Assembly (NCBI GenBank): GCA_035489815.1
Contig: DATHJH010000005.1
Location: 20,406 to 84,405, forward strand
DNA length: 64,000 nucleotides
DNA from: Candidatus Limnocylindria bacterium
Lineage (GTDB): Bacteria; Patescibacteriota; Saccharimonadia; Saccharimonadales; JAGQNK01
Direction of reading: 5' to 3'
Part shown: positions 2 through 63,807 of the stretch, in pieces
Position numbering within the stretch: position 1 is the stretch's first letter
How the letters are laid out: every line of letters begins with the position of its first letter
Translations under genes and position numbers: made by a program
Notes under the pieces: model-generated
Told to the model about the DNA's origin: nothing
The model's input: only the letters and a program-made list of their open reading frames with translations
The model's database searches: none

Positions 2-985
2 ACTAATAACCCCGTTACCCCCATCACGCTTCCCGCAAACCTTGTCAACACAACCGCCGGCTCTGATGCCTGGGAACTGGTGGAATGGTCCACAGATAAT
101 CGCCATGTTCTCATCAGGCACACCTTCAAGGGTGGTTCAGAGTTTGTCATGTTGGACCGTGAGCGTCCTGCCGAAAGCCTCAACCTGAATAAACACTTTA
201 CTATGACCTTGTATAAGGCAGCATTGCGGGACAAAAAGTTCGACAAACTGCACCTCCTGGATAAAAATGGCGGCACTTTACGCTTTGGTGACAGCAAATC
301 AAAGCAACTATCCGTGGTAGCTTCCAAGGTATCCGCCTTTAAGTCCTATGGCGATGAAGTTGTGTTCTACGTGGGTAGCGAAGGAGCAAAAAAGGGCACC
401 GTGCACGTCAATATACGCAAAGGCAGGGACACCTTTAAAGTGCGTGACCTCCCGGCGGGCAAGCAGTACTCCCTGGATATTACCCGGTACGATGATGAAT
501 GGTTTATGGCCGTAGGCACGGATACAGACAAAAGAGCCTACGTCTATCATGAAGTTTTTGGTGATCTGGAACAGGACAACCCCAAGGTGCCCGCACCGAT
601 TGCGGTGTTTAGAATGCAGCAGCCCCTGGACGCCATATCCGTGTCCGCCAATACACGCTTTATAAGTATCCAGAGCGGTAGCGAGTTTGGCGTGTATGAC
701 GCCGAACACGACCGCCGCTACCAATATGACACAAAGCTCAAGCTGGCTGCCAGCCAAAAGGCTGAATGGATGGACGGTCATCGCCTGGCCGTCGTTACCA
801 AGGGTACGGTGAACGTCTGGGACTACGACGGAATCAACATACAGAGTCTGGTCGCCGCTCACCCCGCCTTTGTTCCATTCTTTGACCGCGATTACGACAA
901 CCTCTATACCTTGTCTCCCTCCGCAAACGCCAAAGGCAAGACGAGCCTGCTTAAAACACCTATGCGTATCCCGTCCGACCTGTAG
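2..985 (+). CDS. hypothetical protein, C-terminal part (frame open to left window edge)
   Basis: Frame of listed ORF 80..985 has no stop back to nt 2. Strand-rich sequence (YVYHEVFG, VNVWDYDG) hints at a beta-propeller-like fold, but I recognise no motif. Confidence 0.5.
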   Translation, partial: TNNPVTPITLPANLVNTTAGSDAWELVEWSTDNRHVLIRHTFKGGSEFVMLDRERPAESLNLNKHFTMTLYKAALRDKKFDKLHLLDKNGGTLRFGDSKSKQLSVVASKVSAFKSYGDEVVFYVGSEGAKKGTVHVNIRKGRDTFKVRDLPAGKQYSLDITRYDDEWFMAVGTDTDKRAYVYHEVFGDLEQDNPKVPAPIAVFRMQQPLDAISVSANTRFISIQSGSEFGVYDAEHDRRYQYDTKLKLAASQKAEWMDGHRLAVVTKGTVNVWDYDGINIQSLVAAHPAFVPFFDRDYDNLYTLSPSANAKGKTSLLKTPMRIPSDL

Positions 986-3458: not shown

Positions 3459-3554
3459 CTCAAAACTTCCCCTCTGCCAGCACCCCAATCAAGTTGAGGG
3501 CAGGCTATCCAGCTTGACTGGGGGGAATGACGGTGGAGGGGTTGGGGTTTTGAG
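3459..3554. repeat. nested palindromic intergenic repeat, copy 1
   Basis: Left arm ctcaaaacttcccctc...ccccaatcaag pairs with right arm cttgactgggg..ggaatgacggtggaggggttggggttttgag. The same arms recur at 6473, 23254 and 43588. Confidence 0.8.
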
Positions 3555-3606
3555 AATCAGGTTCGTCTCACGATCTCACTAGAGCAGTGGTACAATAGCA
3601 GGAGTT

Positions 3607-6421: not shown

Positions 6422-6472
6422 CCATAGCCACGCACCACAAAAGCTCTATACGCAAGCATAGCTTGCCTGAGT

Positions 6473-6540
6473 CTCAAAACCCCCAATCCTGTCATACCGG
6501 ATCAAGCTGGGGATAACAGAGGAGGGGTTGGGGTTCTGAG
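6473..6540. repeat. nested palindromic intergenic repeat, copy 2 (short)
   Basis: ctcaaaacccccaatcctgtcatacc...ggataacagaggaggggttggggttctgag. Lies about 25 nt upstream of the receiver gene. Confidence 0.8.
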
Positions 6541-10511: not shown

Positions 10512-10590
10512 GGCCTCACCGTCTAACGCTTCGGGTAATCATGAGGTACCGGGTAATCTGGTGTCGTGACCGCTGGACAAGGTAGTTACT
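10512..10590 (+). repeat. tRNA-Glu-derived sequence, copy A1 (mini-helix-like)
   Basis: The 30-nt ggcctcaccgtctaacgcttcgggtaatca mimics the tRNA 5' acceptor and D arm. It is followed directly by tgaggtacc, which resembles the 3' acceptor strand. Confidence 0.6.
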
Positions 10591-10609
10591 TAAAAATTCA
10601 AAAACACAT

Positions 10610-10688
10610 GGCCTCACCGTCTAACGCTTCGGGTAATCAATAGACACCAGGAAACCTGGTGGCATAACCGTTAGACAGTGGCTACCCT
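10610..10688 (+). repeat. tRNA-Glu-derived sequence, copy A2 (pseudo-tRNA-like)
   Basis: Identical 30-nt 5' block, then gacaccagg-aaa-cctggtg: the tRNA anticodon stem with a collapsed loop. Then ccgttagac, which pairs with gtctaacg. Confidence 0.6.
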
Positions 10689-10707
10689 TACAATAGAAAC
10701 ATTACGC

Positions 10708-10782
10708 GGCCTCATCGTCTAACGGTTAGGACACCAGGTTCTCATCCTGGCAATCGGGGTTCGATTCCCCGTGAGGTCACCA
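10708..10782 (+). tRNA. tRNA-Glu (anticodon CUC), CCA encoded
   Basis: Hand-folded cloverleaf: acceptor GGCCTCA/TGAGGTC, D arm GTCT-AACGGTTA-GGAC, anticodon arm CCAGG-TTCTCAT-CCTGG, T arm CGGGG-TTCGATT-CCCCG, then ACCA. Confidence 0.85.
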
Positions 10783-12640: not shown

Positions 12641-13909
12641 TCACCCCTTCGCTTTATCGCCCATAATAATTTGGCGAAGTCCTTTCAGCTTGTGCAACAC
12701 CTCGTCGAAGGTAACTATCTCTACGTCCTTGCTGTTACTGCGAAGAAGTTCAAACGACTTGCGCTGTTTGGCGGACATTCCTTTGAGCATCCCAGCTACG
12801 ACGACGCATTTTGGATTGTAGGCTTCAAAGGCCTCCTCAGAGTTGCTACGTAGGTTGTAGAATTCTTTTTGTAGATTATCTCTTTGATCAAGAACCTGGT
12901 TGGTCGCGCCGCTCAACTCTTTATCTGCAGCAAATACATCATTTCCACGATATATTTGTTTTTTGAGCAAGGGAGTTCGATGGGTCTTGATCTCAATGAT
13001 GGCGACATTGTCTGTAAATTTGTTTTTATAGATAAAGTCGGTGACCTTGCCTTTCTTGTTGTCTATGCCCTTACCCCCTACGTAAGCCTTGTCCTGAAAG
13101 AATAAAACTGCAGATGTGAATAGTTGCGAAAAAATCCAGTTATACTTTTTGAAAAACTTTTGCCACTTTTCTTCCAGGCCATCAGTCTCAGTCTTTTGTT
13201 TTAGGAGTTCCTCAAATTCTTCTATAACGGCCTCGATATAAAACTCTTCAATTCTTTCTCGTGTCCTGAGAACAGCGCCCTCGTTATCAAGCAGATTGTC
13301 CTGAGCAGTCTTTTGTGCCAACCCAAGAATCGCATCTACGTCACCCGCTGACAACATTTCTGGTGTGATTTTACTGCGGTGTATATAGGCTCCAAGCCCA
13401 CCACCCACATATTTCACTTTTGGTGGTTTAAAGTCGGCAGGAAAAAGCGATGACAAGGAGACGGCTGCCTGAATATTTAACTCTTTTGAATGTCTGTCAA
13501 AAAGGGCGGATAGCTTCGGAAACTCTTGATCGAGTCTTTTGGCGTTGATGACTATCCTTGTGGGCCCTATGACACTGGGAAGATTCGGACTAATGACTAG
13601 CTCCTCAAGCTGACGGTCCTCAAACAGCACATTAGCCAATCGAGATAGGATTCGAGTGAATCCGTATCCACGACCCGGTGCTGTACTGAAACCCCGTTGA
13701 AGCTCGTCGGGCATATCTTTGAATACGAAACGCTTCACAGGATATTTCGGCTGACCGTCTCTGCGGAAGGGGTAGTGGATTACTTGTTCTCTGGTCTTGA
13801 AGACTTCTCGCGACTTAACTCGGATGTTATTGCGCTCGTCAATATATTCGTAGACCGTTTTCGTCTTCAGGTCTTTAGCGATTGTCTCGTATGGTTTTCT
13901 TGGTTTCAT
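12641..13909 (-). CDS. Shedu-like nuclease (SduA/DUF4263-type C-terminal domain)
   Basis: 422 aa. The C-terminal half carries a PD-(D/E)xK-like core GKVTDFIY...VAIIEIKTHRTPLL, then NQVLDQRDNL and VVVAGM...VEIVTFDEV, as I recall for DUF4263. Confidence 0.6.
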   Translation of the reverse strand: MKPRKPYETIAKDLKTKTVYEYIDERNNIRVKSREVFKTREQVIHYPFRRDGQPKYPVKRFVFKDMPDELQRGFSTAPGRGYGFTRILSRLANVLFEDRQLEELVISPNLPSVIGPTRIVINAKRLDQEFPKLSALFDRHSKELNIQAAVSLSSLFPADFKPPKVKYVGGGLGAYIHRSKITPEMLSAGDVDAILGLAQKTAQDNLLDNEGAVLRTRERIEEFYIEAVIEEFEELLKQKTETDGLEEKWQKFFKKYNWIFSQLFTSAVLFFQDKAYVGGKGIDNKKGKVTDFIYKNKFTDNVAIIEIKTHRTPLLKKQIYRGNDVFAADKELSGATNQVLDQRDNLQKEFYNLRSNSEEAFEAYNPKCVVVAGMLKGMSAKQRKSFELLRSNSKDVEIVTFDEVLHKLKGLRQIIMGDKAKG

Positions 13910-14097
13910 CCTACCTTTATTTTACGCCTACAGAATATGCCTTAGCAACGTTATTGACTCGAAAGCAAAAAGCATAAGCAGTATGACACTCCAAGGGTAG
14001 CGAATCTCTGAGTCGTTTCTCCAGGCTTAGAATGCGAGGACATATGGTATTCCAGTTTTTGGCCCTGTGGGGCACTTTTCTTGGTTATTTCTTGAGC

Positions 14098-14259
14098 ATC
14101 GAACCCCGATTGCCCAATCGGGCGAGAACAGCCGGTGCTGTTCGCAAGGAAGCCTTCCGAGGGCAACTGGTTGCCATACGCGCAAGTTTCGGGCTCGCTG
14201 AAGGTGAGTCGATCCCCCGTGAGGTCACCAGTATTTTTCGACAACTACTTAATCTTGGC
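14098..14259 (+). repeat. structured repeat R1, carrying two tRNA-Glu fragments
   Basis: 14098-14114 is the reverse complement of tRNA ggcaatcggggttcgat (17/17). 14208-14230 matches the tRNA 3' end ttcgattccccgtgaggtcacca at 21/23. The remainder aligns with R2 at 15001. Confidence 0.7.
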
Positions 14260-14293
14260 ATAATTGCCAGGCTCTTGTATATGTAATACACTG

Positions 14294-14302
14294 TGTTACA
14301 AT
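14294..14302 (+). promoter_or_regulatory. extended -10 element TGTTACAAT
   Basis: Ends 6 nt before the brnT ATG, implying a leaderless transcript. Confidence 0.4.
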
Positions 14303-14308
14303 CGACAT

Positions 14309-14590
14309 ATGGTGCAATACGACTGGAACGATGCCAAAAGCCGCCAGCTCAAACAGCGTCATGGCGTTAGCTTTCAGGATATCAAGGCTGCTATAGGCTC
14401 CGGCCACCTACTCGATGACATAGAGCACCACAACCCCCACACCTACCCTCATCAGCGGATTCTAGTTGTCGCCGTCAATAACTATGTATATGTCGTTCCC
14501 TACGTCCGTAACGGCACTATCACATTTCTCAAGACAATTTATCCTAGCCGTAAATTAAACAAAAGGTATCAAAGGAGTAAGTCACCATGA
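14309..14590 (+). CDS. brnT: BrnT-family toxin (DUF497)
   Basis: From the internal Met: MVQYDWNDAKSRQLKQRHGVSFQDIKAA...RILVVAVNNYVYVVPY is typical of BrnT. Overlaps the antitoxin gene by 4 nt. Confidence 0.8.
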   Translation: MVQYDWNDAKSRQLKQRHGVSFQDIKAAIGSGHLLDDIEHHNPHTYPHQRILVVAVNNYVYVVPYVRNGTITFLKTIYPSRKLNKRYQRSKSP

Positions 14591-14856
14591 CCCAAAGCGA
14601 CCTCACTAAAGAAGAGCAAGAAGACCTTCGGGTTATAGAAGATGCTATAGAAAAAGGAGAGTATCGCTCTGTCCTTACACCGGAGCGCCGCCGCGAATTA
14701 GAGCAAGCCGCGAGCAAGCCGCGCGAGCGCAAACAATTGGTGACACTTAGGGTAGCACCGGCCGACCTAGCTAAGCTCAAGCGCAAGGCCGAACATGAAG
14801 GCTTGGCCCCCACTACTTACATGGCCTCAGTGTTGCACAAGACAGCTGTGCAGTAG
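14587..14856 (+). CDS. brnA: BrnA-type antitoxin (RHH/CopG-like C-terminus)
   Basis: 89 aa. VTLRVAPADLAKLKRKAEHEGLAPTTYMASVLHK resembles a ribbon-helix-helix, and the gene is paired with brnT. Confidence 0.75.
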   Translation: MTQSDLTKEEQEDLRVIEDAIEKGEYRSVLTPERRRELEQAASKPRERKQLVTLRVAPADLAKLKRKAEHEGLAPTTYMASVLHKTAVQ

Positions 14857-14956
14857 CGCGTCGTTAATTCTAAGCTCTCCAGCTCCTTCTGCAAAAGATA
14901 TAGACCAGGCAGCAGAGAGTTCCACCTTTTATCCAGGTGGGTCACCAAATCAAGAG

Positions 14957-14979
14957 CCGGTCTGCAAAGACGGGTTTTT
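14957..14979 (+). terminator. rho-independent terminator after brnTA
   Basis: ccggtct-gcaa-agacggg followed by ttttt. Confidence 0.55.
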
Positions 14980-15000
14980 GATTGGTGTTTTCTGGAAATG

Positions 15001-15142
15001 ACCCCGATTGCCCAATCGGGTGAGACATGCCACAGGCATGTCTCAAGGAAACCTTCTGGGGCAAGCTGTGCTTGCCGCCGTGAAGTTTTCGGGCCTGTTG
15101 CATTGTGCCGCTACAATTTTTTACCTACTACTTAGCTCTTGC
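15001..15142 (+). repeat. structured repeat R2
   Basis: Shares accccgattgcccaatcggg.gaga, caagga.ccttc..gggcaa, aagttt(t)cgggc and ctacttaRctcttg blocks with R1. The intervening hairpins differ in sequence but stay perfectly paired. Confidence 0.7.
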
Positions 15143-15292
15143 GAAAGGGGCAAATCCGGATAGTTTTCGACTGGAAGACCCTCGCTTTGCTCGTGCCGAA
15201 AAGTATATGAAATTGTAGACAGAAAGTACTGTATAAAAATATACAGATGTTATTGACTACTGTATAGTTTTAGATGTAGACTATACAGTACT

Positions 15293-16399
15293 ATGGTTGA
15301 TCCAAAAAAACCGTTCAATAACCTTCCTACTCTTCCCCCAAAGAGCTTTCTGTTTGATGACTCGGCCATTCTCAAGGCTTCCATGAGTGCTTCCCAGGCC
15401 ATAGCATCACTAAATGCCACAATTCGGGCGGACGTGAGCAACGTTAATCATAGTCTGAATATGATGTCTCCGCTCTACGTGCCCGAAGCCGTTACAAGTT
15501 CCGGGGTTGAGAATATCATTACGACCAATGAACGAGTATACGAAGCCCGTTTGCTCGACGAAAACGATGTTAAACCCCAAGACAAAGAAGTCATGAGGTA
15601 TGTTGAGGCATTGGCTATGGGTATAGCCGAACTCGACAAGAGAGACTTCCTGGCCACAAACCAGTATATTGCTATTCAAAAAACCCTTGAGCCCTCAAAG
15701 ACAGGAATTCGCAAGATACCAGGAACGCAACTCTCAAATCCTAAAACCGGGCAAATTTACTACACGCCGCCAGATAATGAGCAGGATATTCGACGTTTGC
15801 TCAAAAACTTTGAAGAATATTTTAACGAAGAAGCGCCAAAGCACGAGATCTTTGCACGGGCTGCACTGCTACACTATCAGTTTGAAGCGATTCATCCTTT
15901 TCATGATGGCAATGGGCGTACGGGACGTATGCTTATACCTCTATACCTAACTAAGCAGAATGTCTTAGATGCGCCACTTTTATTTGTAAGTAAATTTATT
16001 CTTGAAAACAGAGACAACTACTACAAACTACTTCGAAATGTAACGTTTAAGGAAGACTGGAAGAGTTGGGTGCTCTATATGCTCGAAGCTTTTGAGCGGC
16101 AGGCCGAATACACGCTGGCCGTTCTCGGCAAGATAGATTTCTTCAAGAAGAAGCTTGAGAAAAAGCTCAATGAGGTAATGGGGCATGCTTACGCTCATGA
16201 TATTACCCAATTCCTCTATAAGCATCCTTTCTTTACTCAGGCAGAGTTCGAGGGTGCTGTAGATGTGTCGTACGTAACCGCGAGAAAATACCTCAAGCTG
16301 CTTGAAACCGAAAGGATAGTAGCTAAAAAGAGACAGGCTAAGCGTAATCGTTACATCTACACTTGCCCCGAATATATTGTGCTTTTGAAAAAGTCATAA
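15293..16399 (+). CDS. Fic-family protein with C-terminal winged-helix-like region
   Basis: 368 aa with the canonical Fic motif HPFHDGNGRTGR. Confidence 0.9.
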   Translation: MVDPKKPFNNLPTLPPKSFLFDDSAILKASMSASQAIASLNATIRADVSNVNHSLNMMSPLYVPEAVTSSGVENIITTNERVYEARLLDENDVKPQDKEVMRYVEALAMGIAELDKRDFLATNQYIAIQKTLEPSKTGIRKIPGTQLSNPKTGQIYYTPPDNEQDIRRLLKNFEEYFNEEAPKHEIFARAALLHYQFEAIHPFHDGNGRTGRMLIPLYLTKQNVLDAPLLFVSKFILENRDNYYKLLRNVTFKEDWKSWVLYMLEAFERQAEYTLAVLGKIDFFKKKLEKKLNEVMGHAYAHDITQFLYKHPFFTQAEFEGAVDVSYVTARKYLKLLETERIVAKKRQAKRNRYIYTCPEYIVLLKKS

Positions 16400-23187: not shown

Positions 23188-23253
23188 GAGTAGGGAAACC
23201 CTAAACACGAAGCCCTAAATCCTAAACAAATTCAAATATCTAATACCTATAGT

Positions 23254-23380
23254 CTCAAAACCTCCAATCCCGTCATACCGGGCCTGACCCGGTATCCTCA
23301 AATAAAGAAAATTAACTATTGTATCTACTACTGGATTCCCGGGTCTAGTTGGGAATGACGGTGGAGGTTGGGGTTTTGAG
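23254..23380. repeat. nested palindromic intergenic repeat, copy 3
   Basis: ctcaaaacctccaatcccgtcataccggg ... gggaatgacggtggaggttggggttttgag. Sits inside a second, imperfect outer inverted repeat. Confidence 0.8.
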
Positions 23381-23499
23381 GGTCAGGTTCTGATGATCAA
23401 AATATAAAACAGGCTGCCCTTGAAGCTGTTTGGAACATTTGGATTTTGAAATTATTTAGAGTTTAGGTATTAGGATTTAGGATTTCTAGTCGTTAGACT

Positions 23500-26310: not shown

Positions 26311-26829
26311 ATGCAAGGGGCTTCATCCGATGATAAATCTTTTTTTACACTGAAAGCTGAGCGTACCCACCTGCCTGGTGTACCTGGCGTAGATACCAGC
26401 AACCCCCCTTATGATTGCCTTGTGTACCTTGATATTTACGGAGGTCAATTACAAGCTATACCCGGCGAAGACGAAACAGCCACCCTTGAATACGATGGGC
26501 CTTTACATCGTGTTCTAGCCACCCTTGTCTTAGCCGACGAAACAAATCCAAAAACTCTCCAAATATTCGATCGCATAGAAAGAGAGAAGCCCGGGACACA
26601 AGCGAGGGTACACCTTAAGGCTGATCATGCGTACGACTCGCTGGTGAGCGCCCTCTATAATACTCATCCTAATAATCCCAGAATGGTCGATGTGGCAGGC
26701 TTGGCGGTAGCCGAAACGCTTGATACATTACGGACCTTCACTTTCGAACACTACGAGAACACAGTCGCGACTCTCATCGATCGGGCACTCACTCCTCTTA
26801 CAGAAAGAGCGGAACCTTTGAACCCCTGA
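26311..26829 (+). CDS. hypothetical protein
   Basis: 172-aa ORF. No motif recognised. Confidence 0.45.
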   Translation: MQGASSDDKSFFTLKAERTHLPGVPGVDTSNPPYDCLVYLDIYGGQLQAIPGEDETATLEYDGPLHRVLATLVLADETNPKTLQIFDRIEREKPGTQARVHLKADHAYDSLVSALYNTHPNNPRMVDVAGLAVAETLDTLRTFTFEHYENTVATLIDRALTPLTERAEPLNP

Positions 26830-27213
26830 AGTCGAGGCTAGCAGGTGATTGGGCACAGATATGAAAACAGGCCTCCGAGAGGGTGAGAACAGCCTGTGGC
26901 CGTTCGCAAGGCCGGAAGCCCGGATGGCAAAGCCACCGAGCTGAGGTGGGGCCGACCGCATTTTCAAAGAAAATGACGGGTGGCTGGGCACGCACACTAA
27001 AAAGAGCCTGTAGAGGGGGTGGGCACCGCTACAGGCTCATTTCAGGAGTCAACCCTAAAGTTGACTCCATACCCTTCAACCCACCCCGGTGTAAGCGTCG
27101 ATGTCCAAAACTCTATAAAGACTCGCGCCGTTCCGACAGACGGAACGTACTTGCATACTCACCTTGAATGGGGACCAACTCAGCCAAAGCTAAGAAGGGC
27201 TAGTTAAAGGGAA
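26830..27213 (+). other. densely structured non-coding segment (candidate ncRNA, identity unresolved)
   Basis: No credible ORF. Perfect hairpins at 26933-26949, 26959-26975, 27004-27038, 27045-27068 and 27129-27147. Segment 26885-26911 matches repeat R1 (14124-14149) at 23 of 27 positions. Confidence 0.4.
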
Positions 27214-27374
27214 TAGACTTCTCCCCGGATAAATCTTGGAGTCAAATACGATGATTGCTGATGCAGTGACCGGACTGGCGAGTAATGCGTAACCATAGTT
27301 ACTCAGCATGAGTCAGGGCGGTCAGTGCGCAGCAAGGGCGTATTTGAACCAGGACTTATCTGGGGAGGAGTCTA
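27214..27374 (+). ncRNA. 161-nt long imperfect hairpin (candidate sRNA, or a MITE-like palindrome)
   Basis: The outer 26-nt arms pair with 22 Watson-Crick, 3 G-U (valid on the + strand only) and 1 mismatch. Apex hairpin gtaac-cata-gttac at about 27295. Confidence 0.35.
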
Positions 27375-27668
27375 CTAGTTTGTTTTAGAACGCCGTCTCC
27401 TTCCTTTGCAGGTGAGACAACGCTAAAAATAAGTGGAGGGTAACAACTCATAGTCAGCACGTTCTAAAACAATCTAACAAAATTAAGATGACTATAAGTC
27501 ATCTCTGTTAGAATAGGGGGTATAAGGTGCGTAAACCCCTTATGTGGGATTCACAGTTTGCTATTCTAGCAGAATTATATTCTTTGTCAACACCTTTTTG
27601 TGTTAAGTTCAAATAAATTTACTTGTAAACATAAGCTTTACCCCTTATAGATCCTTTTTTGACGTCGT

Positions 27669-28526
27669 ATGAAAATATATAAGATTTCATATAACTCGGA
27701 TGACTTTCCGTCAACCCTCAGGCATATACCAAGCCCGCCGAAAGAGCTGTATATTTTAGGCGACCTGGGACCGCTCCTGGAAAAACCACTTCTGGCCGTC
27801 GTAGGCAGCCGCAAGGTCACCCCTTATGGCAGGAGCATTACGCTGGACCTGGTACGGGCGGTCGCCTCGCAACGGGTTGTCATCATCAGCGGCATGGCGC
27901 TGGGTGTCGACGCACTCGCTCACCAGGCAGCGCTGGAAGTAGGCGGCAAGACAATTGCCGTATTGCCCTGCGGCCTGGACAAACCCTATCCCGCCACCAA
28001 CCGTCAGCTTGCCCGGAAGATCCTGGAACAGGGCGGGGTACTTATGAGCGAGTACCCCGAAGGGACACCCCCGCTTATCCAGAACTTCATAGCCCGTAAT
28101 CGTCTGGAGTCGGGGATGAGTGACGGCGTATTAATTACCGAGGCAGCCATAAAAAGCGGCACTGTACATACTGCCAGGTTTGCACTTGAACAGGGCAAAA
28201 CCGTCATGGCCGTGCCGGGAAACATCACGAGTGAACTATCCAAAGGCACAAACAACCTCATTCGCAGCGGTGCCGTGCCGGTGACCAGGCCAGAAGATAT
28301 ATTTGAAGTGCTAGACATCATGGGTACACCAGAGGACCATGAAGTTGTAGCAGCCAATGCAGAAGAAGCCGCCATCCTGCAGCTTCTCAAACAAGGTATT
28401 ACCGACAGCAGTATCCTGCAAACTTCCAGCCAGCTGGAAGTAGTCGTATTTAATCAGACCCTCACCATGCTGGAGCTAACTGGCAAGATTCGTCCTTTGG
28501 GTGCGGGCCACTGGTCGCTGGCTTAA
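27669..28526 (+). CDS. dprA: DNA-processing protein DprA (Smf)
   Basis: 285 aa. LAVVGSRKVTPYG...IISGMALGVDALAHQAAL...VLPCGLD...FIARNR are typical DprA Rossmann-fold motifs. Confidence 0.9.
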   Translation: MKIYKISYNSDDFPSTLRHIPSPPKELYILGDLGPLLEKPLLAVVGSRKVTPYGRSITLDLVRAVASQRVVIISGMALGVDALAHQAALEVGGKTIAVLPCGLDKPYPATNRQLARKILEQGGVLMSEYPEGTPPLIQNFIARNRLESGMSDGVLITEAAIKSGTVHTARFALEQGKTVMAVPGNITSELSKGTNNLIRSGAVPVTRPEDIFEVLDIMGTPEDHEVVAANAEEAAILQLLKQGITDSSILQTSSQLEVVVFNQTLTMLELTGKIRPLGAGHWSLA

Positions 28527-32966: not shown

Positions 32967-33383
32967 ATGACAGAATCAAATGAACCGGAAAGCTACCTCA
33001 GACCAGTCGACTCTCCTCTCTACGTGGAACATGGGAGCGGAAGGCGTGGCATACGAGCCCTGAGGCAAGAAGATATGTTAGCGGCCATAGCCTTATCTAG
33101 CGAACCCCCCAGCATAACCAGGCTCGAAGAGCTAACAGGGTTTTCGAATCCTACCGTTATTTCTGTGGTTCAAGCGCTAAGGGAGAGCTCACTTATCGAG
33201 AGTACCGACATAGCAGTTTACCGAGGGTACCGTTCGGGAGAGGGCAGAGTACCTCATGTCGGCTATGTGCTTACAGAACCAACCACAGAAGCGTTCCCAG
33301 CACACCTGGAAATAAGAATTCCGCTGCTTTATAAAGCCTACAAGACATTACATCAAAATAAACAAAACCCGAACAACACCTAA
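32967..33383 (+). CDS. hypothetical protein with wHTH-like segment
   Basis: 138 aa. ITRLEELTGFSNPTVISVVQALRESSLIE resembles a MarR/ROK-type HTH. Confidence 0.45.
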   Translation: MTESNEPESYLRPVDSPLYVEHGSGRRGIRALRQEDMLAAIALSSEPPSITRLEELTGFSNPTVISVVQALRESSLIESTDIAVYRGYRSGEGRVPHVGYVLTEPTTEAFPAHLEIRIPLLYKAYKTLHQNKQNPNNT

Positions 33384-34161
33384 TCAACTACATAAGCCTA
33401 TGCAAACATGCGGTTTGAGCCGGAAAATTCGGACGGACGGAAAGCCCAAAGAACCGATCTCAAACTACTGGAAGAGTACGAAGACTAAACAAAATACGAA
33501 CACGATTATTTTTGAGTATCCATCATACGGATACGACAAAAAGCGAACAGAGCTACTTTTATAGCTAAGATCAAAAAAAGCAAGAAACTGGAAAGAACCG
33601 GCAAATTTCGAAGGCCGCAAAGTAGGGAGCATAGAAAAGTCTAACAACAAAATAAAATGGGGGGTCGAAAGCCGGGCGGGGACAGCCACACGAAATGTAA
33701 GTTAAGTCATAGACACATGACGTCGTACAATGTATATTTTGCGACTCTAATATGAGGCTGTGGGACGAACTGATACACCTTCCGTAGGGGAAGTTGGACG
33801 AACCTTTTAACTATGAAGCCCTGTACCGCAGCTAACTAGTACCGATCAAATGCACTATGCCCAGGTGTTATAGTGTCTGCTGGCTGACCCTCCAGCTTCA
33901 CTGGCTTGTCGCATGTAGCGGCGCAATTTGACTTTTCCACAGAATCCTCATGTGCCTTGTGAAAATTTGCTTTTTCACGATTTAATTAGTTTTATATATT
34001 TATTCCCTGCTTCACCTTCTTTATGAATTTTTGACTTTTGCCCTACTTTATATATTTGTATATATTTTGCCCTGGGCGGCCATGATTCGTTTACTGAACG
34101 TTTTACGAACACCCGGGGCAGAGCGGAATAGGGACCCTTTCCTTGAGCTGCCTGGCGTAAC

Positions 34162-35073
34162 TTATTTGTAGAAGACTTTTCCTGGCACCCTTACGTCTAT
34201 ATAGTGCCGTGGAGTTATATGGTCCGCCTCTAACCTCCCTTTTGTAGCAATGAGGGTTCCCGCCTGAATCCTCCCGTCACCGCGGAGGTTAAACTTGATG
34301 TAATATGGCCTGTTCCGCAGACGAATATGCATTTCATTGGCGACTGCCGGCAGTACGATGGATTGTATCTCAAGCTTTTTTTCCTGGAGCTGCGCCGCTA
34401 CTGTCATCACAAAGCTCACCGTCTCTTTTGGCAACGCATAGCTGCCGCGCTCCAGGGACAGGCTGCTTTCGTCCTGCAGGGTTGGCAGTTTATCAAGGAT
34501 AGAACTCTCTACATCGCCTGCATCGGCAATTGTCCGTCCGTGCTCATCAATGACCAGCGCACCCTGTAATGTGCCAAGGACAAGCGCAGGCTCTGCCGGT
34601 CGGATTTGCACAACCGGACGGCGGCCCACTAACGGCAACACAATCGCTATGTCACCCAGCTCCGGGAACCTTTCCTGGAGCTTTTTGGCCAACTGGTCGG
34701 TATTTATAAGCAACTTGCTGCGGTTGGATAGCGATTCGCTAAAAACCGCCCGGACATCCGCCTCATAACCCTTCACGCCAGTAAAAAGGCCTTGGGCCTG
34801 AGGAGGGTTACCTACGACTTGTAGCTTTGGGTTGTCGCTGAGAGTAGATACATAGATCATACACAGCAGGAGCGCTATGCCAGCCACCAACGAAGGAAGG
34901 TAGCTCATCCACTGACTGGCTCTGAGGTTGGGAGCTTTTCGTTTAACTGGCGGCGGTTGACGGGACTGACCATCGCCAGACGAACGGCTGGCATAATAGG
35001 AAAACACGTTCGCAGCAGGTTGCTGGCGGACATTTCGGCCTTGTTTGGTTGGTGTTTGTTTTTTACGGAACAT
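34162..35073 (-). CDS. ftsQ: cell-division protein FtsQ/DivIB-like
   Basis: 303 aa. Basic cytoplasmic N-terminus, one TM, then a POTRA-like extracytoplasmic region. Last gene of the dcw cluster. Confidence 0.65.
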   Translation of the reverse strand: MFRKKQTPTKQGRNVRQQPAANVFSYYASRSSGDGQSRQPPPVKRKAPNLRASQWMSYLPSLVAGIALLLCMIYVSTLSDNPKLQVVGNPPQAQGLFTGVKGYEADVRAVFSESLSNRSKLLINTDQLAKKLQERFPELGDIAIVLPLVGRRPVVQIRPAEPALVLGTLQGALVIDEHGRTIADAGDVESSILDKLPTLQDESSLSLERGSYALPKETVSFVMTVAAQLQEKKLEIQSIVLPAVANEMHIRLRNRPYYIKFNLRGDGRIQAGTLIATKGRLEADHITPRHYIDVRVPGKVFYK

Positions 35074-41004: not shown

Positions 41005-41922
41005 TTAGAGTGGTCGCTGTTTTTGTTTCGCTGCGGCCCGAAGTTTAGCACTTCGTGCACGCGGATTGGAAACGATTTCATCGTCGTCGGCCATGACAGG
41101 CTGCTTAGTCAGCAGCGTCAGGACGGCGTCGTAGCGGTTACCAGCCAGTTCTTTGAACTGCTGTTTCACAATTCTGTCTTCCAGACTGTGAAAACTGATA
41201 ACCACTATTCGCCCTCCCGGGGCCAGCAGATCTACCCACAGAGGTATGGCTTGCTTGATTTGGTCAAGCTCGCTATTGACCGCAATACGAAGCGCTTGAA
41301 ACGTTCGCGTTGCTGGGTGTACCTTACTATGCCCCGGCCAAGCTTGGGCAACGACTTTTGCAAGGCTTGTTGTCGTAGTAATCGGACGATGTTCCACTAT
41401 CAGACGAGCAATTTTGCGTGCTCGCGGCTCTTCGCCATACTCATGGATTAGATAGCTTAACTCCGCTTCATCATAGTCGTTGACTATGACTTCCGCCGTC
41501 AGGCTTTGTGTCTGGTCCATGCGCATATCCAGCGGTCCTTCTGTCCGAAGGCTAAAACCCCTGCCTGCATTGTCAAGGTGCGGTGACGAAACCCCAAGAT
41601 CAGCCAAAATCAAATCGAATTGTTTATTTGCCTGTATAAGTTCTTGGCTTGCGCCCAAAAAATCCTGGTGGATTATCTGGATGCCACTGCCCGCAAACTT
41701 GTCATGCAAATATGCAATTGCGTGGTGATCGCGATCTACAAGAGTAGATGTGCCTGGTTGTAAGGTGCGTTCCAGTAGAGCTTCCGCGTGCCCTCCGTAT
41801 CCGGCCGTGAGGTCCAGATACGATTCCCCTTTTTTTGGTTGGAGATAGTGAAGGACTGCATCAGGCAGCACTGGAAAATGTTGATTAGTTTGATTTTGGT
41901 TGTTTGTTTTGGTGTTTTTCAT
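41005..41922 (-). CDS. rsmH: 16S rRNA (cytosine1402-N4)-methyltransferase
   Basis: 305 aa. HFPVL..., DLTAGYGGHAEALL, ADLGVSSPHLD, and SFHSLEDRIVK. Confidence 0.95.
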   Translation of the reverse strand: MKNTKTNNQNQTNQHFPVLPDAVLHYLQPKKGESYLDLTAGYGGHAEALLERTLQPGTSTLVDRDHHAIAYLHDKFAGSGIQIIHQDFLGASQELIQANKQFDLILADLGVSSPHLDNAGRGFSLRTEGPLDMRMDQTQSLTAEVIVNDYDEAELSYLIHEYGEEPRARKIARLIVEHRPITTTTSLAKVVAQAWPGHSKVHPATRTFQALRIAVNSELDQIKQAIPLWVDLLAPGGRIVVISFHSLEDRIVKQQFKELAGNRYDAVLTLLTKQPVMADDDEIVSNPRARSAKLRAAAKQKQRPL

Positions 41923-42490
41923 GCATTTTTGTTTTTGATTTTATCTTCTTGTTTCAAAAAGATTTTACCAGATTGTTGATTCTTGCGCATTTTTTTGCGT
42001 TCGAATCATGCAAGGTCACCTATCCAGCAGTCCGCTTTTTGTTTTTTGAAAAGTTTTTGTTTTTGTGCGAAGCCCTATAAAACGGGTTTTATGGGGACCC
42101 CGAGTGTTGATTTGTTTTCTTGGAACCATATTTTGTGGGTTTTTGAAAAACCTACGAAGTTCTAAGTACGAATCAACTTTTTGAGAGACTTATGTGTGAG
42201 GTGGAGTTTTGGGAGGTGTTTTGATGTAAGGTACAAAGGTTTTTTGTATGGTTGGTACCTTCATCCATATGCGTGACTGCCAGATAGCTAACCTCGGTAA
42301 TGAGACACCCATTCTGGGTTTCTCATCGCGCCAGGAACGAAATAAATTTGTTCTTGGGCTGCTCTTTCCAATCGGTGGTTATGTTCCGTCTAGTTTGGAA
42401 TTTTCCATCCGAAAGCGTAAAGAAGTGCCGGAGTCCGAGACGTGCTATCTGAGACTAAACTGCCAAATTTTTAAGGGGCTGCCTGGGAAT

Positions 42491-42850
42491 TTACTGGGTG
42501 GCTGTGAGGCGCCAGTATTTTCCTGCTCTTACTGCGGTGACGTCGTGGTCGATGACAGCGTAATCCAGTAAATGCTGCTCTATGACGATGCGACCCTGCT
42601 TTTGGTCCAGTGCCGCTTCTGTCTTGCCTGCTCTGAACTTGACGTTCAGGTCCGCCGTTCGTTGGTCCAGGATGTTGCCTTGGAGCTCTGGCTCCATGAG
42701 CTTATCCCAGACGTCCTTGGGGTACAGGTGCAAATAGTTTTGGAATCCGCGTGTCAGCACTACTCCAGAGGCAAACTCGGATCGAAGCTCGGTTGGAATT
42801 GTCAACCGACGCTTGTCGTCAAGCTTTCTCTCAAAGTAATCTACTGCCAC
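42491..42850 (-). CDS. mraZ: transcriptional regulator MraZ (short form)
   Basis: 119 aa. LDDKRRLTIPTELR and KQGRIVIEQHL are the two SpoVT/AbrB-type half-motifs of MraZ. First gene of the dcw cluster. Confidence 0.8.
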   Translation of the reverse strand: MAVDYFERKLDDKRRLTIPTELRSEFASGVVLTRGFQNYLHLYPKDVWDKLMEPELQGNILDQRTADLNVKFRAGKTEAALDQKQGRIVIEQHLLDYAVIDHDVTAVRAGKYWRLTATQ

Positions 42851-42944
42851 TCAGTCCGTCCCGTTTAAATTGCTAGTGGTTTTTTATTTTTGCGCCCAGT
42901 AGTACAGCTACTGGGTTGCTACGTGAGGTAGTCGATTTTGGGCT

Positions 42945-42991
42945 ACCCACGTTTACCCACTGACATGAGTGTACAACCCACTCCTACCCAC
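42945..42991 (-). promoter_or_regulatory. four GTGGGT boxes, candidate MraZ operator
   Basis: acccac (+ strand) at 42945, 42955, 42976 and 42986, spaced 10/21/10 nt, 95-140 nt upstream of mraZ. MraZ operators in other bacteria are direct repeats containing TGGG at about 10-nt phasing. Confidence 0.45.
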
Positions 42992-43010
42992 GCGCAAGCT
43001 TTTTACACAG

Positions 43011-43037
43011 AAAAACAGCCGTTCTTACGGCTGTTTT
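43011..43037 (-). terminator. rho-independent terminator between the 145-aa gene and the dcw promoter
   Basis: acagccgt-tctt-acggctgt. On the minus strand it is followed by ttttt. Confidence 0.55.
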
Positions 43038-43106
43038 CCACAGGTTTACTAAAGTTAGTCACTTATCCACAACATGTAGCGGTACCGTGATCTTTACACA
43101 CGCTAG

Positions 43107-43544
43107 CTACGTTTGGGGGTACTGCCTTCGAGACTGATCTTCGGGCGTACCGGGCTGCCGTCCCGGGTCTTCTACGGCAATGATGAGGTCAGCTGGATTT
43201 TCGGGGAGTTTTAGCGAAGCCCCTTCCTGCTGAACTTGATTTCCGCGCTCTAGCGCTTCTGCCCCGGGGTGCATTCGTACGAGGTCGTCTGGAACTCCGG
43301 AATCATCAGGGTGCGTAGCATCGTGAATACGTTCGACTAGCCCTTCCGCCACAGGCAACTGTTTGCCCACTTCGTAAGGAAGCGTATCTTCCGGCATTGC
43401 ACCGGCCCCTATTACAAGCCCGGCTCCGACGCCAACTACCGTTGTAGCTTTCCTGGCGACCTTGGCAACCCGTTGGCGTCTGTTTATTTGTTGTGTTTCT
43501 GCTGTGTCTATGTCGGCTAAAGTATCAGCTTTTGTCATAGTCAT
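43107..43544 (-). CDS. hypothetical membrane-anchored protein
   Basis: 145 aa with one Gly/Ala/Val-rich hydrophobic segment and an acidic C-terminal part. Confidence 0.45.
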   Translation of the reverse strand: MTMTKADTLADIDTAETQQINRRQRVAKVARKATTVVGVGAGLVIGAGAMPEDTLPYEVGKQLPVAEGLVERIHDATHPDDSGVPDDLVRMHPGAEALERGNQVQQEGASLKLPENPADLIIAVEDPGRQPGTPEDQSRRQYPQT

Positions 43545-43587: not shown

Positions 43588-43708
43588 CTCAAAACCCACC
43601 CCTGTCATCCCCCAATCAAGCCCAGGGTCAAGCCGGAGGATCTGGTAGTAAAAAAACTGGATTGTCTGGTCAAGCCAGACAATGACAGTGGAGCAGTGGG
43701 GTTTTGAG
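43588..43708. repeat. nested palindromic intergenic repeat, copy 4
   Basis: ctcaaaacccacccctgtcatcccccaatcaagcc ... caatgacagtggagcagtggggttttgag. Confidence 0.8.
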
Positions 43709-43745
43709 ATTCAGGTACTTTCCTTCTTGGACTTGTTTGCGCGAC

Positions 43746-46091: not shown

Positions 46092-46336
46092 TTTATATGG
46101 TCAAAGTATAAGTAGTCGGTTTGACATAGAATGTGAGAATTCTTACTCCAGAACCTGTTCTAAGAACCTGTCCACAATCTCCAATCCCGTCCCAAAATCA
46201 CCCATTCTGACGTCAATACACCCCAGCTCCCCAGCCGTACCTATAGGTAGGATAGGAAACCTGGAACGAATTGCTATTGATTTTCTAAAAGAAAATGGAG
46301 CAATTTTGGGCTCGGGAGCGAGATTGTGAACAGGCT

Positions 46337-54478: not shown

Positions 54479-55477
54479 TCAGAGTTGCTTCAAGCTCTCC
54501 GCTTCATCAGGATCTTTGATCAGTTTCTTGCTTTTGATTTCATAGCGCAGACCAGTTAGCGGCGACTCCATGTAGTCGTCGTTCAGCAGATTCACAAATT
54601 TGTTCAAATCTTTGTCGTCCATGAGGATTATCGCCCCTGTATCATCCAGCATGAGCTCAATTCCGAGGTCGTCGGCGTGTTCAAGCAGCTTCTCTTGATT
54701 AGTGACCGTAGGGTCAAGCTTTTGCAGTTTGTTGACCAGGGATTTCTTGCCTTTGACCATTTCCTCTAACGAAGATTCCGTGTAGCTGAGCTTGAAGCTT
54801 TCGCCAATCATCTGCATCTTTGCCACGGCAATGCCGTACTTTTTGGCGTTATAGCCAAACAGGCTTTCCAGCTTGGCCTGGTTAAAGACATAGATATCCT
54901 GGTCCAGCACCAGCAATTGGTTATCCCCCGGAATTTGCAGTGAGCCGTCGGCATCAAAGGGCACAAACTTGCCTGCCCGCAGCATCCATGCGGTACTGCC
55001 TTTCATGGTCATGTTAGCCGGCAGTGATTTGATGATATAAAAAGGCTTTTTTAGGTCCGGGTGGCTGCAGCGGACCAGCACGCCTTTGATGCGTTTAAAG
55101 TCATGCTCTTCTTCTACAAACGTCTCTATTTCATGTTCCTGGGTCTTCAGCCAGCCCAACACCACCCGGGCACTATCCACATTTTTCAGGCGGGTACGTT
55201 GCAGGACCTTACCCTCTGCCTCACCCTCTTCAAACTCCCGCACCACCAGCCCTTCCTCTGCTCCGGCCAGGACAAATTCCAGCAGACTGTCTATCAGTAG
55301 CGGCTCCAACGTTTTGCGCAGGTCCTTACTAACAGTGGTTTTGTACACCACATAATTTTTATTGAACAGAAACACTTCTATACGCAGTTCTTCTTTGACC
55401 TGCACCAGGTTATTTGCCCACAGAAAAACGTCTGATGCTTCGTAGGCTTCTTCTTTGGGCTCCAGAATATCTTCCAA
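54479..55477 (-). CDS. hypothetical protein, 332 aa (possible DUF4868/KwaB-like; weak recollection only)
   Basis: Size and the segment DNQLLVLDQDIYVFNQAKLESLFGYN remind me of DUF4868 proteins. No catalytic motif. Lies 49 nt upstream of the 600-aa gene. Confidence 0.45.
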   Translation of the reverse strand: MEDILEPKEEAYEASDVFLWANNLVQVKEELRIEVFLFNKNYVVYKTTVSKDLRKTLEPLLIDSLLEFVLAGAEEGLVVREFEEGEAEGKVLQRTRLKNVDSARVVLGWLKTQEHEIETFVEEEHDFKRIKGVLVRCSHPDLKKPFYIIKSLPANMTMKGSTAWMLRAGKFVPFDADGSLQIPGDNQLLVLDQDIYVFNQAKLESLFGYNAKKYGIAVAKMQMIGESFKLSYTESSLEEMVKGKKSLVNKLQKLDPTVTNQEKLLEHADDLGIELMLDDTGAIILMDDKDLNKFVNLLNDDYMESPLTGLRYEIKSKKLIKDPDEAESLKQL

Positions 55478-55564
55478 AAGGTGGACTCCTCGTTTACATT
55501 GCTGCGGTACTTCTTATGATTAGCCTCATTCTAGCGCAAGTCGCAGCAGACAAACGATGTAAAA

Positions 55565-55840
55565 TTAATTAGTCGTTTCTCTATCAATATAAGTATTCAT
55601 TATATGGGTGGTGGCGATCGGCAAAACCTTAATAAGCCCATGTCCTAAAAGATGGGGAAGCCTAAAGTCCTTGGGGCGGGCTGTTTTTGCATACTCATGT
55701 AAAACCGGAACGTTCACAACATGCGCCATTGGATCAAAACTCGCGGCAAGGTCTGGCGTATGAAACACAAACTTCTCACCCACCAAGTCCACTACTTGGC
55801 CTATAGTATGAGCAACGAGGCCCTGCGGCGGCCGATCCAT
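55565..55840 (-). CDS. hypothetical small protein (91 aa)
   Basis: ATG preceded by gaagagg. Overlaps the upstream 101-aa ORF by 65 nt in another frame. Confidence 0.4.
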   Translation of the reverse strand: MDRPPQGLVAHTIGQVVDLVGEKFVFHTPDLAASFDPMAHVVNVPVLHEYAKTARPKDFRLPHLLGHGLIKVLPIATTHIMNTYIDRETTN

Positions 55841-56081
55841 CAGATACCTCTTCCCTCAGCGCATACCCGTTCAATTCGTCTCGCATTGCGTACATAGCCG
55901 CCACGCTTGCCCTGAACAAGCGACCAGTCGTTGATGGTGCAATGACCGGCTTGCCCTCGTTATCCTCAGTACGACCAAGCACCCAGAAGTGCTCAGCACC
56001 TGCATTGGGTTGGTCCGGGGTCGGTTGATGTTCCTGCACGTAGGCTAGCAATTCTGCGGCTTGTTCACGAGATCCTGACAT
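55776..56081 (-). CDS. hypothetical small protein (101 aa)
   Basis: ORF with a plausible N-terminal two-thirds. The last ~20 aa (SDGSAAAGPRCSYYRPSSGLGG) overlap the next gene and look low-quality. Confidence 0.4.
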   Translation of the reverse strand: MSGSREQAAELLAYVQEHQPTPDQPNAGAEHFWVLGRTEDNEGKPVIAPSTTGRLFRASVAAMYAMRDELNGYALREEVSDGSAAAGPRCSYYRPSSGLGG

Positions 56082-56439
56082 GTGTCATAGCCTACTAGAA
56101 TAACCATTTAAATGCTACATAGCGTGGTGTTTTCTACAGCATAGTATACTTTATGTAGTAATAAAACCAGATCAGGACACAGACAGAGATTTTATGGAAC
56201 GTGAAACAGCAGGTGATCCAATAGGTTCGCCCCGCCAGGACCTATAACAGTCACACCCACCTGGCATCTGCCTACAGTAGGCTTCTTTTTTTAGACTGGA
56301 GAATTCATCTGGCTGTTGTTCTGTGTCTTCCATGGGTCAAGCCCCCCCAAAAAAACTACAGGCGTATTACCTGTTCTATAAATATGAACCTATTCTACCT
56401 GAACCAGTCAGCAACAGGTGCTGTAAAAATGTCGTAGGC

Positions 56440-63593: not shown

Positions 63594-63776
63594 ATATACC
63601 TTTCAGAAACTTACTAGCTATTAGATCAAAGAAAAGAGACAGGCCCAGGGCCACCATTTCGTATCGATCCAAAAACAGTCTGGGAAATAAGTGTCCTCAT
63701 TTGGGTTTTAGTATACCTTTTCATGGGTACAATTAACAGAGGAGCGTAGAACCCGTGCCAAACTTCCTGCCAATTC

Positions 63777-63807
63777 CTAAGAACCCATCCAGGAGAAAGG
63801 GTCTTAG
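63777..63807. repeat. collapsed IS-end remnant (both terminal repeats, no interior)
   Basis: ctaagaacccatcca (15/15 identical to the IS left end) followed 7 nt later by gggtcttag, which resembles the right end. Confidence 0.5.

Follow-up and report, generated by a model that had tools for sequence, protein, structure and literature searches.

The 64,000-nt stretch of Saccharibacteria DNA analysed here (contig DATHJH010000005.1, referred to below as the window) contains an interval directly upstream of dprA, positions 26830-27668, in which no protein-coding gene is apparent. We propose that this interval most probably holds a stand-alone gene, read from the minus strand, for a large structured noncoding RNA (ncRNA) with its own promoter and its own terminator. 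Judging from sequence comparison, the predicted fold is compact, consists of two domains and is kept by selection. Overall, we hold with good confidence that the element is a gene for a conserved structured RNA of the Saccharibacteria; it probably represents a new class, and a role as a trans-acting scaffold is proposed tentatively.

The interval is bounded by the stop codon of a 172-aa open reading frame (ORF; 26311-26829, plus strand) and by the start of dprA (27669, plus strand), which is identified by a match to the Pfam domain DNA_processg_A (E 6e-71). In the window pth lies farther upstream and topA (777 aa) downstream of dprA. An earlier sequence-only reading had described the interval as hairpin-dense and free of credible genes, and both observations hold. 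The only ORFs inside it, on either strand, are of 94, 89, 65 and 62 aa. Its 839 bases recur without a single difference in two further independent assemblies, where gene callers also leave the gap empty; the locus is therefore not an assembly artefact. With dinucleotide shuffles as control, the minimum free energy (MFE) is -324 kcal/mol for the plus strand (z = -12.6) and -334 kcal/mol for the minus strand (z = -14.1), so that the folding lies above chance. The sequence-only reading gave no strand; the minus strand was assigned in the present analysis.

Comparison of syntenic regions upstream of dprA, as the sequence-only reading had suggested, revealed that the element is conserved in relatives. 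A scan for DprA with one genome per species yielded 80 loci, with about 60 metagenome-assembled genomes of Saccharibacteria/Saccharimonadales. Across the Saccharibacteria loci the DprA proteins are 45-62% identical to the copy in the window. The noncoding stretch upstream of dprA shows 70-90% nucleotide identity to the window in about 45 Saccharibacteria loci (blastn, nhmmer), and some blocks of 25-28 nt are identical between the window and its relatives. In many genomes the spacer between pth and dprA measures just 400-650 nt and is made up of the RNA element. A profile of the 5' half matched 56 dprA loci; it found no match in the loci of Nitrosospira, Levybacteria, Moranbacteria or Yanofskybacteria, nor in L061, a locus labelled as Saccharibacteria. 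A metagenome search with a pattern derived from the RNA, and hence independent of dprA, returned at least 120 loci. The family thus comprises more than 50 Saccharibacteria genomes plus at least 120 metagenome contigs, in syntenic position.

Among the metagenome matches listed, a convergent pth follows just downstream of the RNA in 59 of the 61 loci with enough room, often at a distance of 19-40 nt, and a divergent dprA lies upstream of the RNA in 57 of 78. About 20 listed loci contain the RNA without an adjoining dprA. In those that were inspected, the upstream ORF has 688-777 aa, a size and position that suggest topA. The common order is pth, then the RNA, then dprA or, presumably, topA. Since the RNA persists in loci without dprA, the element is tied to a fixed position in the chromosome and not to dprA itself. 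The window contains a single copy of it, and two pattern scans of 2.9 million viral contigs gave zero matches. The spacings between five invariant blocks take 17-53 distinct lengths, with the three residues modulo 3 about equally common; the lack of any bias towards multiples of three indicates that the RNA locus is not coding.

Both predicted ends of the transcript are conserved, and both lie on the minus strand. In the window the promoter is of the sigma-70 type and consists of a -35 box TTGACA (27585-27590) and a -10 box TAGAAT (27563-27568) preceded by TG, separated by a spacer of 16 nt; 11 of 12 positions agree with the consensus, and the -10 is extended. Transcription would start near 27556, giving a core transcript of about 558 nt (26999-27556) from the predicted start to the end of the terminator U-run. 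The hidden Markov model (HMM) and covariance model (CM) matches described below, 27565-27376 and 27211-27068, fall on this unit. A promoter of the form TTGAC[AT]-16..18-TAnnnT was found in 106 of 106 unique family members with enough upstream sequence, with a 17-nt spacer in 95 and TAAAAT in 70 of them, and at a fixed distance of 32-37 nt ahead of the first invariant block of the RNA. The intrinsic terminator (26999-27038) has a 10-bp stem, an invariant loop CGGUGCCCACCCCCU (27014-27028) and a UUUUU tail; within it, GGUGCCCACCCC is invariant in the alignment. In 109 of 109 sequences the terminator stem is followed by 3-7 U on the minus strand, whereas a run of at least 4 on the other strand occurs in just 17 of 109.

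The base pairs themselves also differ between the strands. Over the same 109 sequences the cells of the terminator stem comprise 1018 Watson-Crick pairs, 38 G·U and 6 A·C. One pair of the long-range helix of the 3' domain is U·G in 106 of 109 sequences, equivalent to an A·C mismatch on the plus strand. Further one-strand wobbles are found at pair 115/239 (G·U in 14 sequences), pair 52/150 (U·G in 12) and pair 103/140 (G·U in 26). The conserved G·U pairs, the promoter and the terminator U-run, all on the minus strand, thus argue that the RNA is read from the minus strand.

The 3' domain is closed by the long-range helix (LR), in which CCCUUUAACU (27202-27211) pairs with GGUUGAAGGG (27072-27081) and which encloses the helices P3, P4, P5, P7 and P8. 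Over 109 sequences, LR is paired in 976 of 981 cells, and next to the pairing CCCUUUAAC/GUUGAAGGG there is a double compensatory variant, CCUUUAAG/CUUAAAGG. Within the domain, P4 is formed by the 5' strand UCCC (27171-27174) and 27084-27087, and P5 by GGUGA (27159-27163) and 27088-27093, so that the 3' strands of both helices lie side by side at 27084-27093. P4 covaries: pair 55/147 is CG in 17 sequences and GC in 6, pair 52/150 is CG in 16 and UG in 12, and the helix occurs as CCCC/GGGG, CCCG/CGGG and CCUAU/AUAGG. In P5, pair 65/144 is CG in 14, UA in 8 and UG in 6 sequences; variants of the helix are GCGAG/CUUCGC, GUGAG/CUUAC (window), GUAAG/UUUUAC and, in type I members (see below), UUGAG/CUUCAA. 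The two 5' strands are separated by an asymmetric bulge, CAUUCAA (27164-27170), whose UCAA is invariant in the columns of the 3'-domain alignment A3. This bulge between P4 and P5 may resemble a T-loop motif, and its UCAA may serve in tertiary contacts.

P7 (27130-27147; CGUUCCG-UCUGU-CGGAAC) is a perfect stem in which all 3 aligned pairs are changed on both sides in the family. P8 (27094-27129; GGCGCGAGUC...GAC.AUCGACGCU) has 10 pairs, 7 of them double-changed, and is 94.8% paired. Inspection by eye gave further helix variants, GUUUUAGAGCG/CGCUCUAAAAC versus GUCCAAGA/UCUUGGAC and GCUCAGG/CCUGGGC. P3 (27175-27201) is a variable-sequence hairpin found at this place in type II members (alignment A3), and an optional hairpin with a covarying stem, P9 (27045-27068; GGAGUCAAC...GUUGACUCC), precedes the terminator in about 40% of members.

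RNAalifold applied to 29 3' domains predicted LR, P4, P5, P7 and P8. In these 29 sequences 95.4% of cells are paired, compared with 85.7% in shuffled alignments and 34-53% when the partners are slid against each other. Fifteen pairs are double-changed, a result reached by 0 of 500 shuffles, and there are 105 compensatory cells versus 31.8 +/- 6.5 in shuffles. With 39 full-length sequences, RNAalifold predicted H3 (the helix closing the 5' domain), LR and the terminator, in total 36 pairs of which 19 show compensatory changes. A covariance model of the 3' domain matches the window at 27211-27068 (minus) with 105 bits and E 9e-20, the window being among its 29 training sequences. The model also matches 52 further dprA loci, always on the strand opposite to dprA; among L063-L080 it matched no locus labelled as another lineage and only L066, which is labelled as Saccharibacteria.

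Two hairpins, H1 and H2, make up the 5' domain together with a three-way junction that H3 closes. In H3, UUGUUUUAGAACG (27460-27472) pairs with CGUUCUAAAACAA (27380-27392); together with its extension, H3ext, the helix is 98.8% paired, and 7 pairs are changed on both sides. One arm of the junction, Hb (27422-27459), carries an invariant apical loop, UGUUACCCUCC (27435-27445), which holds a CCUCC resembling an anti-Shine-Dalgarno sequence. ACCCUCCAC is invariant in 39 of 39 and in 51 of 51 sequences, and the Hb loop is kept even in the distant homologs of L044 and L061; the Hb stem covaries (AAGU/ACUU, GAGU/ACUC, UAGU/ACUA). The other arm, H3b (27393-27421; GUUGUCUC...GGAGACGGC), is a hairpin or subdomain of variable length that is present in all members. 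H1 (27531-27554; GUGAAUCCC...GGGGUUUAC) is a hairpin of variable sequence found at the same place in all relatives. It is followed by a C-rich single strand, ACCUUAUACCCCC (27516-27528), which is nearly invariant in alignments A1 and A2 and has no covarying partner in the alignments. H2 (27473-27512; UCUAACA...UGUUAGA), with a tip hairpin at 27486-27504, has 96.9% of its cells paired. Since its 3' arm shares nucleotides with the 5' arm of H3ext (GUUAG/CUAAC), H2 and H3ext are mutually exclusive; both H2 (UCUAAC/GUUAGA) and H3ext are more than 96% paired, and informative variation is found in H3ext only.

When 51 5' domains were evaluated against a structure comprising H1, H3ext/H3 and Hb, 88% of cells were paired and 13 pairs were double-changed, which 0 of 500 shuffles matched. 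An HMM of the 5' domain that had been built without the window matches it at 27565-27376 (minus) with E 4e-34.

Several points weigh against this interpretation or limit it. Both transcript ends are inferred, being deduced from the consensus of promoter and terminator. The sequences compared share descent, and the shuffle statistics for covariation take no account of phylogeny. Because the pattern for the metagenome search came from the 3' end of the RNA, every sequence collected with it necessarily shares those motifs. The MAFFT alignment shows H1 as only 58% paired, a low count that arises because loops are misaligned, and H2 is without compensatory changes. A pseudoknot between GGUGGG and a CCCACC of the terminator loop was rejected: neither side varies, more than one register is possible and the pairing competes with the covarying P4. 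The three C-rich elements discussed below have no 8-9-nt complement elsewhere in the window. Finally, we found no description of the RNA in Rfam 15 or by full-text searches of the literature, and it may be described elsewhere.

One alternative is a very divergent member of a known family that escapes the Rfam models (RNase P, transfer-messenger RNA (tmRNA), 6S, large signal recognition particle (SRP) RNA, T-box, OLE, raiA). A size of 350-560 nt, long-range helices and phylum-wide conservation would suit a housekeeping RNA; the window, moreover, contains no gene for RNase P RNA, tmRNA, SRP RNA or 6S RNA. We consider this explanation very unlikely. The window was scanned with all 4227 families of Rfam 15 at the gathering threshold, and 26600-27900 was scanned on both strands at E <= 10. 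On the whole window only tRNA-Glu was reported, and at the element the best match was ar7 (E 0.026), which corresponds to the terminator hairpin only. Scans of 23 relatives (16 at the gathering threshold, 7 at E <= 5) returned nothing at the element, and ARAGORN detected tRNA-Glu only and no tmRNA in the window. The cmscan search that the sequence-only reading had recommended thus gave no clean match to a known RNA, in agreement with its suspicion that no consistent RNase P, tmRNA or SRP RNA could be assembled.

For RNase P RNA there is a resemblance of short strings to CR-II and CR-III: GGGUUGAAGGGUG versus GGGUGAAAGGGUG and CCCUCCAC versus ACUCCACC, the reference strings being those of the E. 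coli M1 sequence. However, no type A or type B model matched at E <= 10, the P4-type core of CR-I (GGAAAGUCC) and CR-V (ACAGAAnCCGGCUUA) is absent on reading, and by eye the similar strings are, on both strands, out of order or on the wrong strand. The strings that the sequence-only reading had noted as RNase P-like proved to be the two arms of a lineage-specific hairpin (27213-27375) that is absent from 116 of 117 members. tmRNA was rejected: there was no match to the Rfam tmRNA clan, ARAGORN was negative, and the transcript ends in a terminator hairpin and not in a tRNA-like CCA. For 6S, small and large SRP and Ms1 RNAs no Rfam match was obtained, and the covarying fold is branched and two-domain, not a rod of the 6S type. 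Models of OLE, GOLLD, ROOL, raiA, HEARO and other large ncRNAs of Rfam did not match either. A riboswitch, T-box or attenuator leader is not compatible with the locus, since downstream of the RNA follows a convergent gene (pth in 59 of 61 listed loci, the 172-aa ORF in the window). Group I and group II introns were rejected (no Rfam match; own promoter and terminator), as was a tRNA gene with a group I intron, an idea taken from PMC13011429 (no tRNA halves, no intron match).

It could also be argued that the region acts in cis as a 5' leader or regulatory element of dprA on the plus strand. The element immediately precedes dprA in 57 of 78 listed metagenome loci and in all loci ascertained through dprA, and the plus strand folds well (z = -12.6). 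Against this, the conserved promoter, terminator and U-run are all on the minus strand, on the plus strand the conserved G·U pairs would turn into A·C mismatches, and in about 20 loci the RNA occurs with no dprA beside it. In addition, the candidate plus-strand promoter, TTCACA-17-AATTAT (27550-27578), lies past the structured region, so that a dprA mRNA starting from it would not contain the element. We therefore regard a dprA leader as very unlikely. This candidate promoter matches the consensus at only 9 of 12 positions; it includes the block TTGCAATTTTAGCAAA, which is conserved in relatives, and its function is inferred. The two promoters interleave (27550-27590), each -10 box lying between the -10 and -35 boxes of the other, which suggests that binding of RNA polymerase to the RNA promoter and to the putative dprA promoter would be mutually exclusive. 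The RNA promoter may thus compete with the interleaved dprA/topA promoter; since the RNA persists where dprA is absent, such coupling is not its main function.

The possibility of conservation as DNA, for instance as a protein-binding region serving the divergent genes, with an RNA that has no function, is comparably improbable. Invariant blocks and overlapping divergent promoters could be DNA-binding sites, but neither compensatory changes nor strand-asymmetric G·U pairs are predicted by this explanation, nor is a conserved terminator with a U-run 350-560 nt after a conserved promoter. The sequence-only reading had left a choice between one or more unclassified RNAs and a decayed mobile element. 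The former stands, as a single conserved and covarying RNA gene without an Rfam match, and the latter is rejected. Hairpin richness would suit a decayed mobile element, miniature inverted-repeat element or prophage remnant, and so would the hairpin at 27213-27375, which breaks an invariant junction and has the insertion-like inverted ends UAGACU...AGUCUA. Nevertheless, the element is single-copy in the window, occupies the same syntenic slot across the phylum, has no transposase or integrase nearby and is absent from the viral contigs; its helices carry compensatory substitutions, and the inserted hairpin keeps its fold in a second locus despite divergence. A mobile origin thus has very little probability. 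Least likely of all, to a degree that is practically negligible, are one or more small proteins or a pseudogene. The four ORFs named above overlap the element and stop-free stretches of at least 50 codons are common in the GC-richer 3' domain; the distances between blocks, however, vary with all three residues modulo 3 about equally common, so no frame is kept, conservation is at the nucleotide level with covariation of helices, and gene callers leave the region empty.

We return to the preferred reading, a conserved and putatively trans-acting RNA of the Saccharibacteria. It is rare for a large bacterial RNA to have a fold that is both complex and strongly conserved, and the few orphans of this kind, OLE, GOLLD, ROOL and raiA, are actively studied. 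The Saccharibacteria RNA resembles these four in being a stand-alone gene of at least 300 nt with many helices, multi-way junctions and long-range pairing, in its invariant islands between variable hairpins, and in its restriction to a single lineage, its optional expansions and its subtypes. It differs from them in that the Rfam scans gave no sequence or structure match to any of the four, and in its host, the Saccharibacteria of the candidate phyla radiation (CPR) instead of Bacillota, Actinomycetota or phages. Unlike OLE, which lies beside oapA, it is not adjoined by a dedicated partner-protein gene, and unlike GOLLD and ROOL it is associated neither with phages nor with tRNAs; its conserved single strands are strikingly C-rich. 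RNase P RNA is similar in its size, in its long-range domain-closing helices and in a few short G- or C-rich strings like CR-II and CR-III; the lack of a CR-I/CR-V P4 core, the misordered strings and the absence of any bacterial (RNaseP_bact_a/b), archaeal or nuclear match at E <= 10 set the two apart. A likeness to T-boxes lies in a G-rich strand containing GGGUGG before an intrinsic terminator whose loop is complementary to it; there is, however, no Rfam match and no specifier or Stem I, and with pth convergent downstream there is nothing to attenuate.

Three invariant C-rich elements are without a conserved internal partner: the 5' strand ACCUUAUACCCCC, the Hb loop UGUUACCCUCC and the terminator loop CGGUGCCCACCCCCU (cited also as GGUGCCCACCCCC). 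The only G-rich strand, GGGGUGGGUUGAAGGG, is taken up by P4 and LR. Pairing of the 5' C-rich strand with AAGGGUG was considered and rejected, as the variants inspected showed no consistent covariation. C-rich-loop small RNAs of Gram-positive bacteria, such as RsaE/RoxS and hairpins of RNAIII, pair with Shine-Dalgarno sequences. They share with the RNA described here exposed conserved C-rich loops including CCUCC, an own promoter and an intrinsic terminator; they are about 100 nt long or modular hairpins, in contrast to the covarying two-domain fold of 350-560 nt. We envisage that the RNA would act in trans as a folded scaffold on whose C-rich strands either a C-rich-RNA-binding protein or a G-rich, Shine-Dalgarno-like (GGAGG) RNA would probably dock. 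The CCUCC of the Hb loop is the complement of the Shine-Dalgarno sequence GGAGG. A role as a ribonucleoprotein scaffold or of the sponge type is put forward tentatively.

Somewhat more probable than otherwise, in our estimate, is the broader view that this is an undescribed, ornate and phylum-wide class of large Saccharibacteria ncRNA (about 300-700 nt), a fourth or fifth RNA of 'housekeeping grade' kept in bacterial genomes that are among the smallest. It would scaffold a ribonucleoprotein, sequester Shine-Dalgarno-like RNA as a sponge or, possibly, act as a ribozyme. To our knowledge, almost every large bacterial RNA that has been solved proved to be either a ribozyme or the core of an essential ribonucleoprotein. 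The ultra-small Saccharibacteria live as obligate epibionts; their genomes measure about 1 Mb, and much of standard metabolism has been lost. That 350-560 nt of noncoding sequence are kept lineage-wide, with a near-consensus promoter and a nucleotide conservation exceeding that of the flanking proteins, argues for an important and possibly lineage-specific function. Now that its boundaries and strand are assigned, its secondary structure is supported by covariation and more than 100 sequences are at hand, the family can be tested in cultivated, genetically tractable Saccharibacteria. Should the RNA already have been described under another name, the present work would merely annotate a known RNA correctly.

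Within the family the 3' domain comes in two architectures. Type I (L002, L009, L091, L096, L125 and L135) is characterized by CCCGCAUUCCCCCUCGUUUU...UGAGUGGG...GGCCUUCAAGGUGG; its CCUUCAA could pair locally with UUGAAGG and thereby compete with the long-range helix. A distant homolog that was missed by both HMM and CM is found in L044 (3554-3996) and L061 (3555-3996), on the minus strand in either case. Promoter, H3 and CACCCUCC loop are all retained in this homolog, as is LR, which covaries (CCCUUUAAU/AUUAGAGGG); the terminator loop is different. The copy in the window is the longest seen; the others measure about 255-485 nt in the same way.

Part of this length is due to a hairpin of 163 nt (27213-27375, minus strand), inserted at an otherwise invariant junction between ACUA and AYCCCUUUAAC. 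Of 117 unique family members only the window carries it, and a homolog is present in L003. Its MFE is -75.9 kcal/mol (z = -10; z = -8.5 for the L003 homolog). At their bases the two hairpins are almost the same in sequence, whereas their distal halves have diverged, both still being able to fold; the hairpin thus behaves like an expansion segment. In L003 (3380-4010, minus strand) a second hairpin is located inside the invariant 5' C-rich element, between ACCUUAUA and CCCC, which indicates that this element tolerates being split.

A second addition is an optional 3' extension module of about 135 nt (26863-26998, minus strand), which ends in a second terminator-like hairpin with a U-run (26863-26896). 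The extension is common to about 10 other lineages, with homologs in L039, L027, L026, L021, L022, L010, L013 and L002. It opens with a partial copy of the terminator loop and closes with ...UCUCACCCU, a near copy of the 3' strand of the terminator, and a U-run; in most carriers the final segment, which begins after CACCCU, nearly repeats the 3' strand of the first terminator. An alternative-terminator arrangement was considered and rejected: the end of the extension pairs with the 5' strand of the first terminator in most carriers, but only marginally better than shuffled partners do (25 of 500). It may represent a read-through isoform with a second terminator.

All stems listed in the sequence-only reading were found in the sequence: ccacc/ggtgg (26933-26949), cattttc/gaaaatg (26959-26975), gagcctgtag/ctacaggctc (27004-27038), ggagtcaac/gttgactcc (27045-27068), cgttccg/cggaacg (27129-27147), a hairpin of about 160 nt (27213-27375), gttttagaacg/cgttctaaaac and agatgact-ata-agtcatct. 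Its proposal that 26885-26911 is homologous to a repeat of the tRNA island in the window did not withstand comparison with shuffled sequences: the best local alignment scored 17, versus 15.4 +/- 2.2 in shuffles, and 65 of 300 shuffles equalled it.

Regarding the neighbouring genes, the 172-aa ORF between pth and the RNA contains no Pfam domain and has no tblastn homolog in the 80 dprA loci or in the 120 metagenome loci listed. In relatives pth directly abuts the RNA terminator. The ORF is either a lineage-specific gene or spurious. In two relatives a c-di-GMP-II riboswitch match lies about 3 kb from the RNA locus (L021, 1066-1148, 54 bits; L005, 1-76, 47.8 bits); there is none in the window.

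Other repeats were noted elsewhere in the window. The tRNA-Glu gene (10708-10782) is preceded by two tandem repeats of about 68 nt (the island spanning 10512-10782), which are 82% identical and resemble the 5' half of the tRNA; a 24-nt arm at 10653-10676 is 92% complementary to positions 10717-10740 of tRNA-Glu. A second pair of anchor matches, at 9526 and 9760, considered together with the link to this island, was dismissed as chance; it falls within a long ORF that probably encodes a Y-family polymerase. A family of long inverted repeats in intergenic positions, CUCAAAACCCCCAAUCC...GGUGGAGGGGUUGGGGUUUUGAG, resembling repetitive extragenic palindromes or terminators, occurs at 3506-3561, 6466-6540, 23251-23382 and 43678-43709. 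A second repeat family, CTAAGAACCCATCCAAAATCT, forms inverted pairs at 6957-6988/7881-7912 and 57882-57912/58058-58088, which flank segments of about 900 nt and about 150 nt, respectively, and is also found at 46157-46182 and 63774-63797.

The sequence-only reading had singled out the interval upstream of dprA as a long gene-free gap. The gap is present, and it is not the only one: several other long stretches of the window (13909-15293, 33383-34162, 41922-43107 and 55477-56440) are likewise without an ORF of at least 120 aa and gave no Rfam match at the gathering threshold. The stretch 13909-15293 holds a 25-nt repeat at 14103 and 15001.

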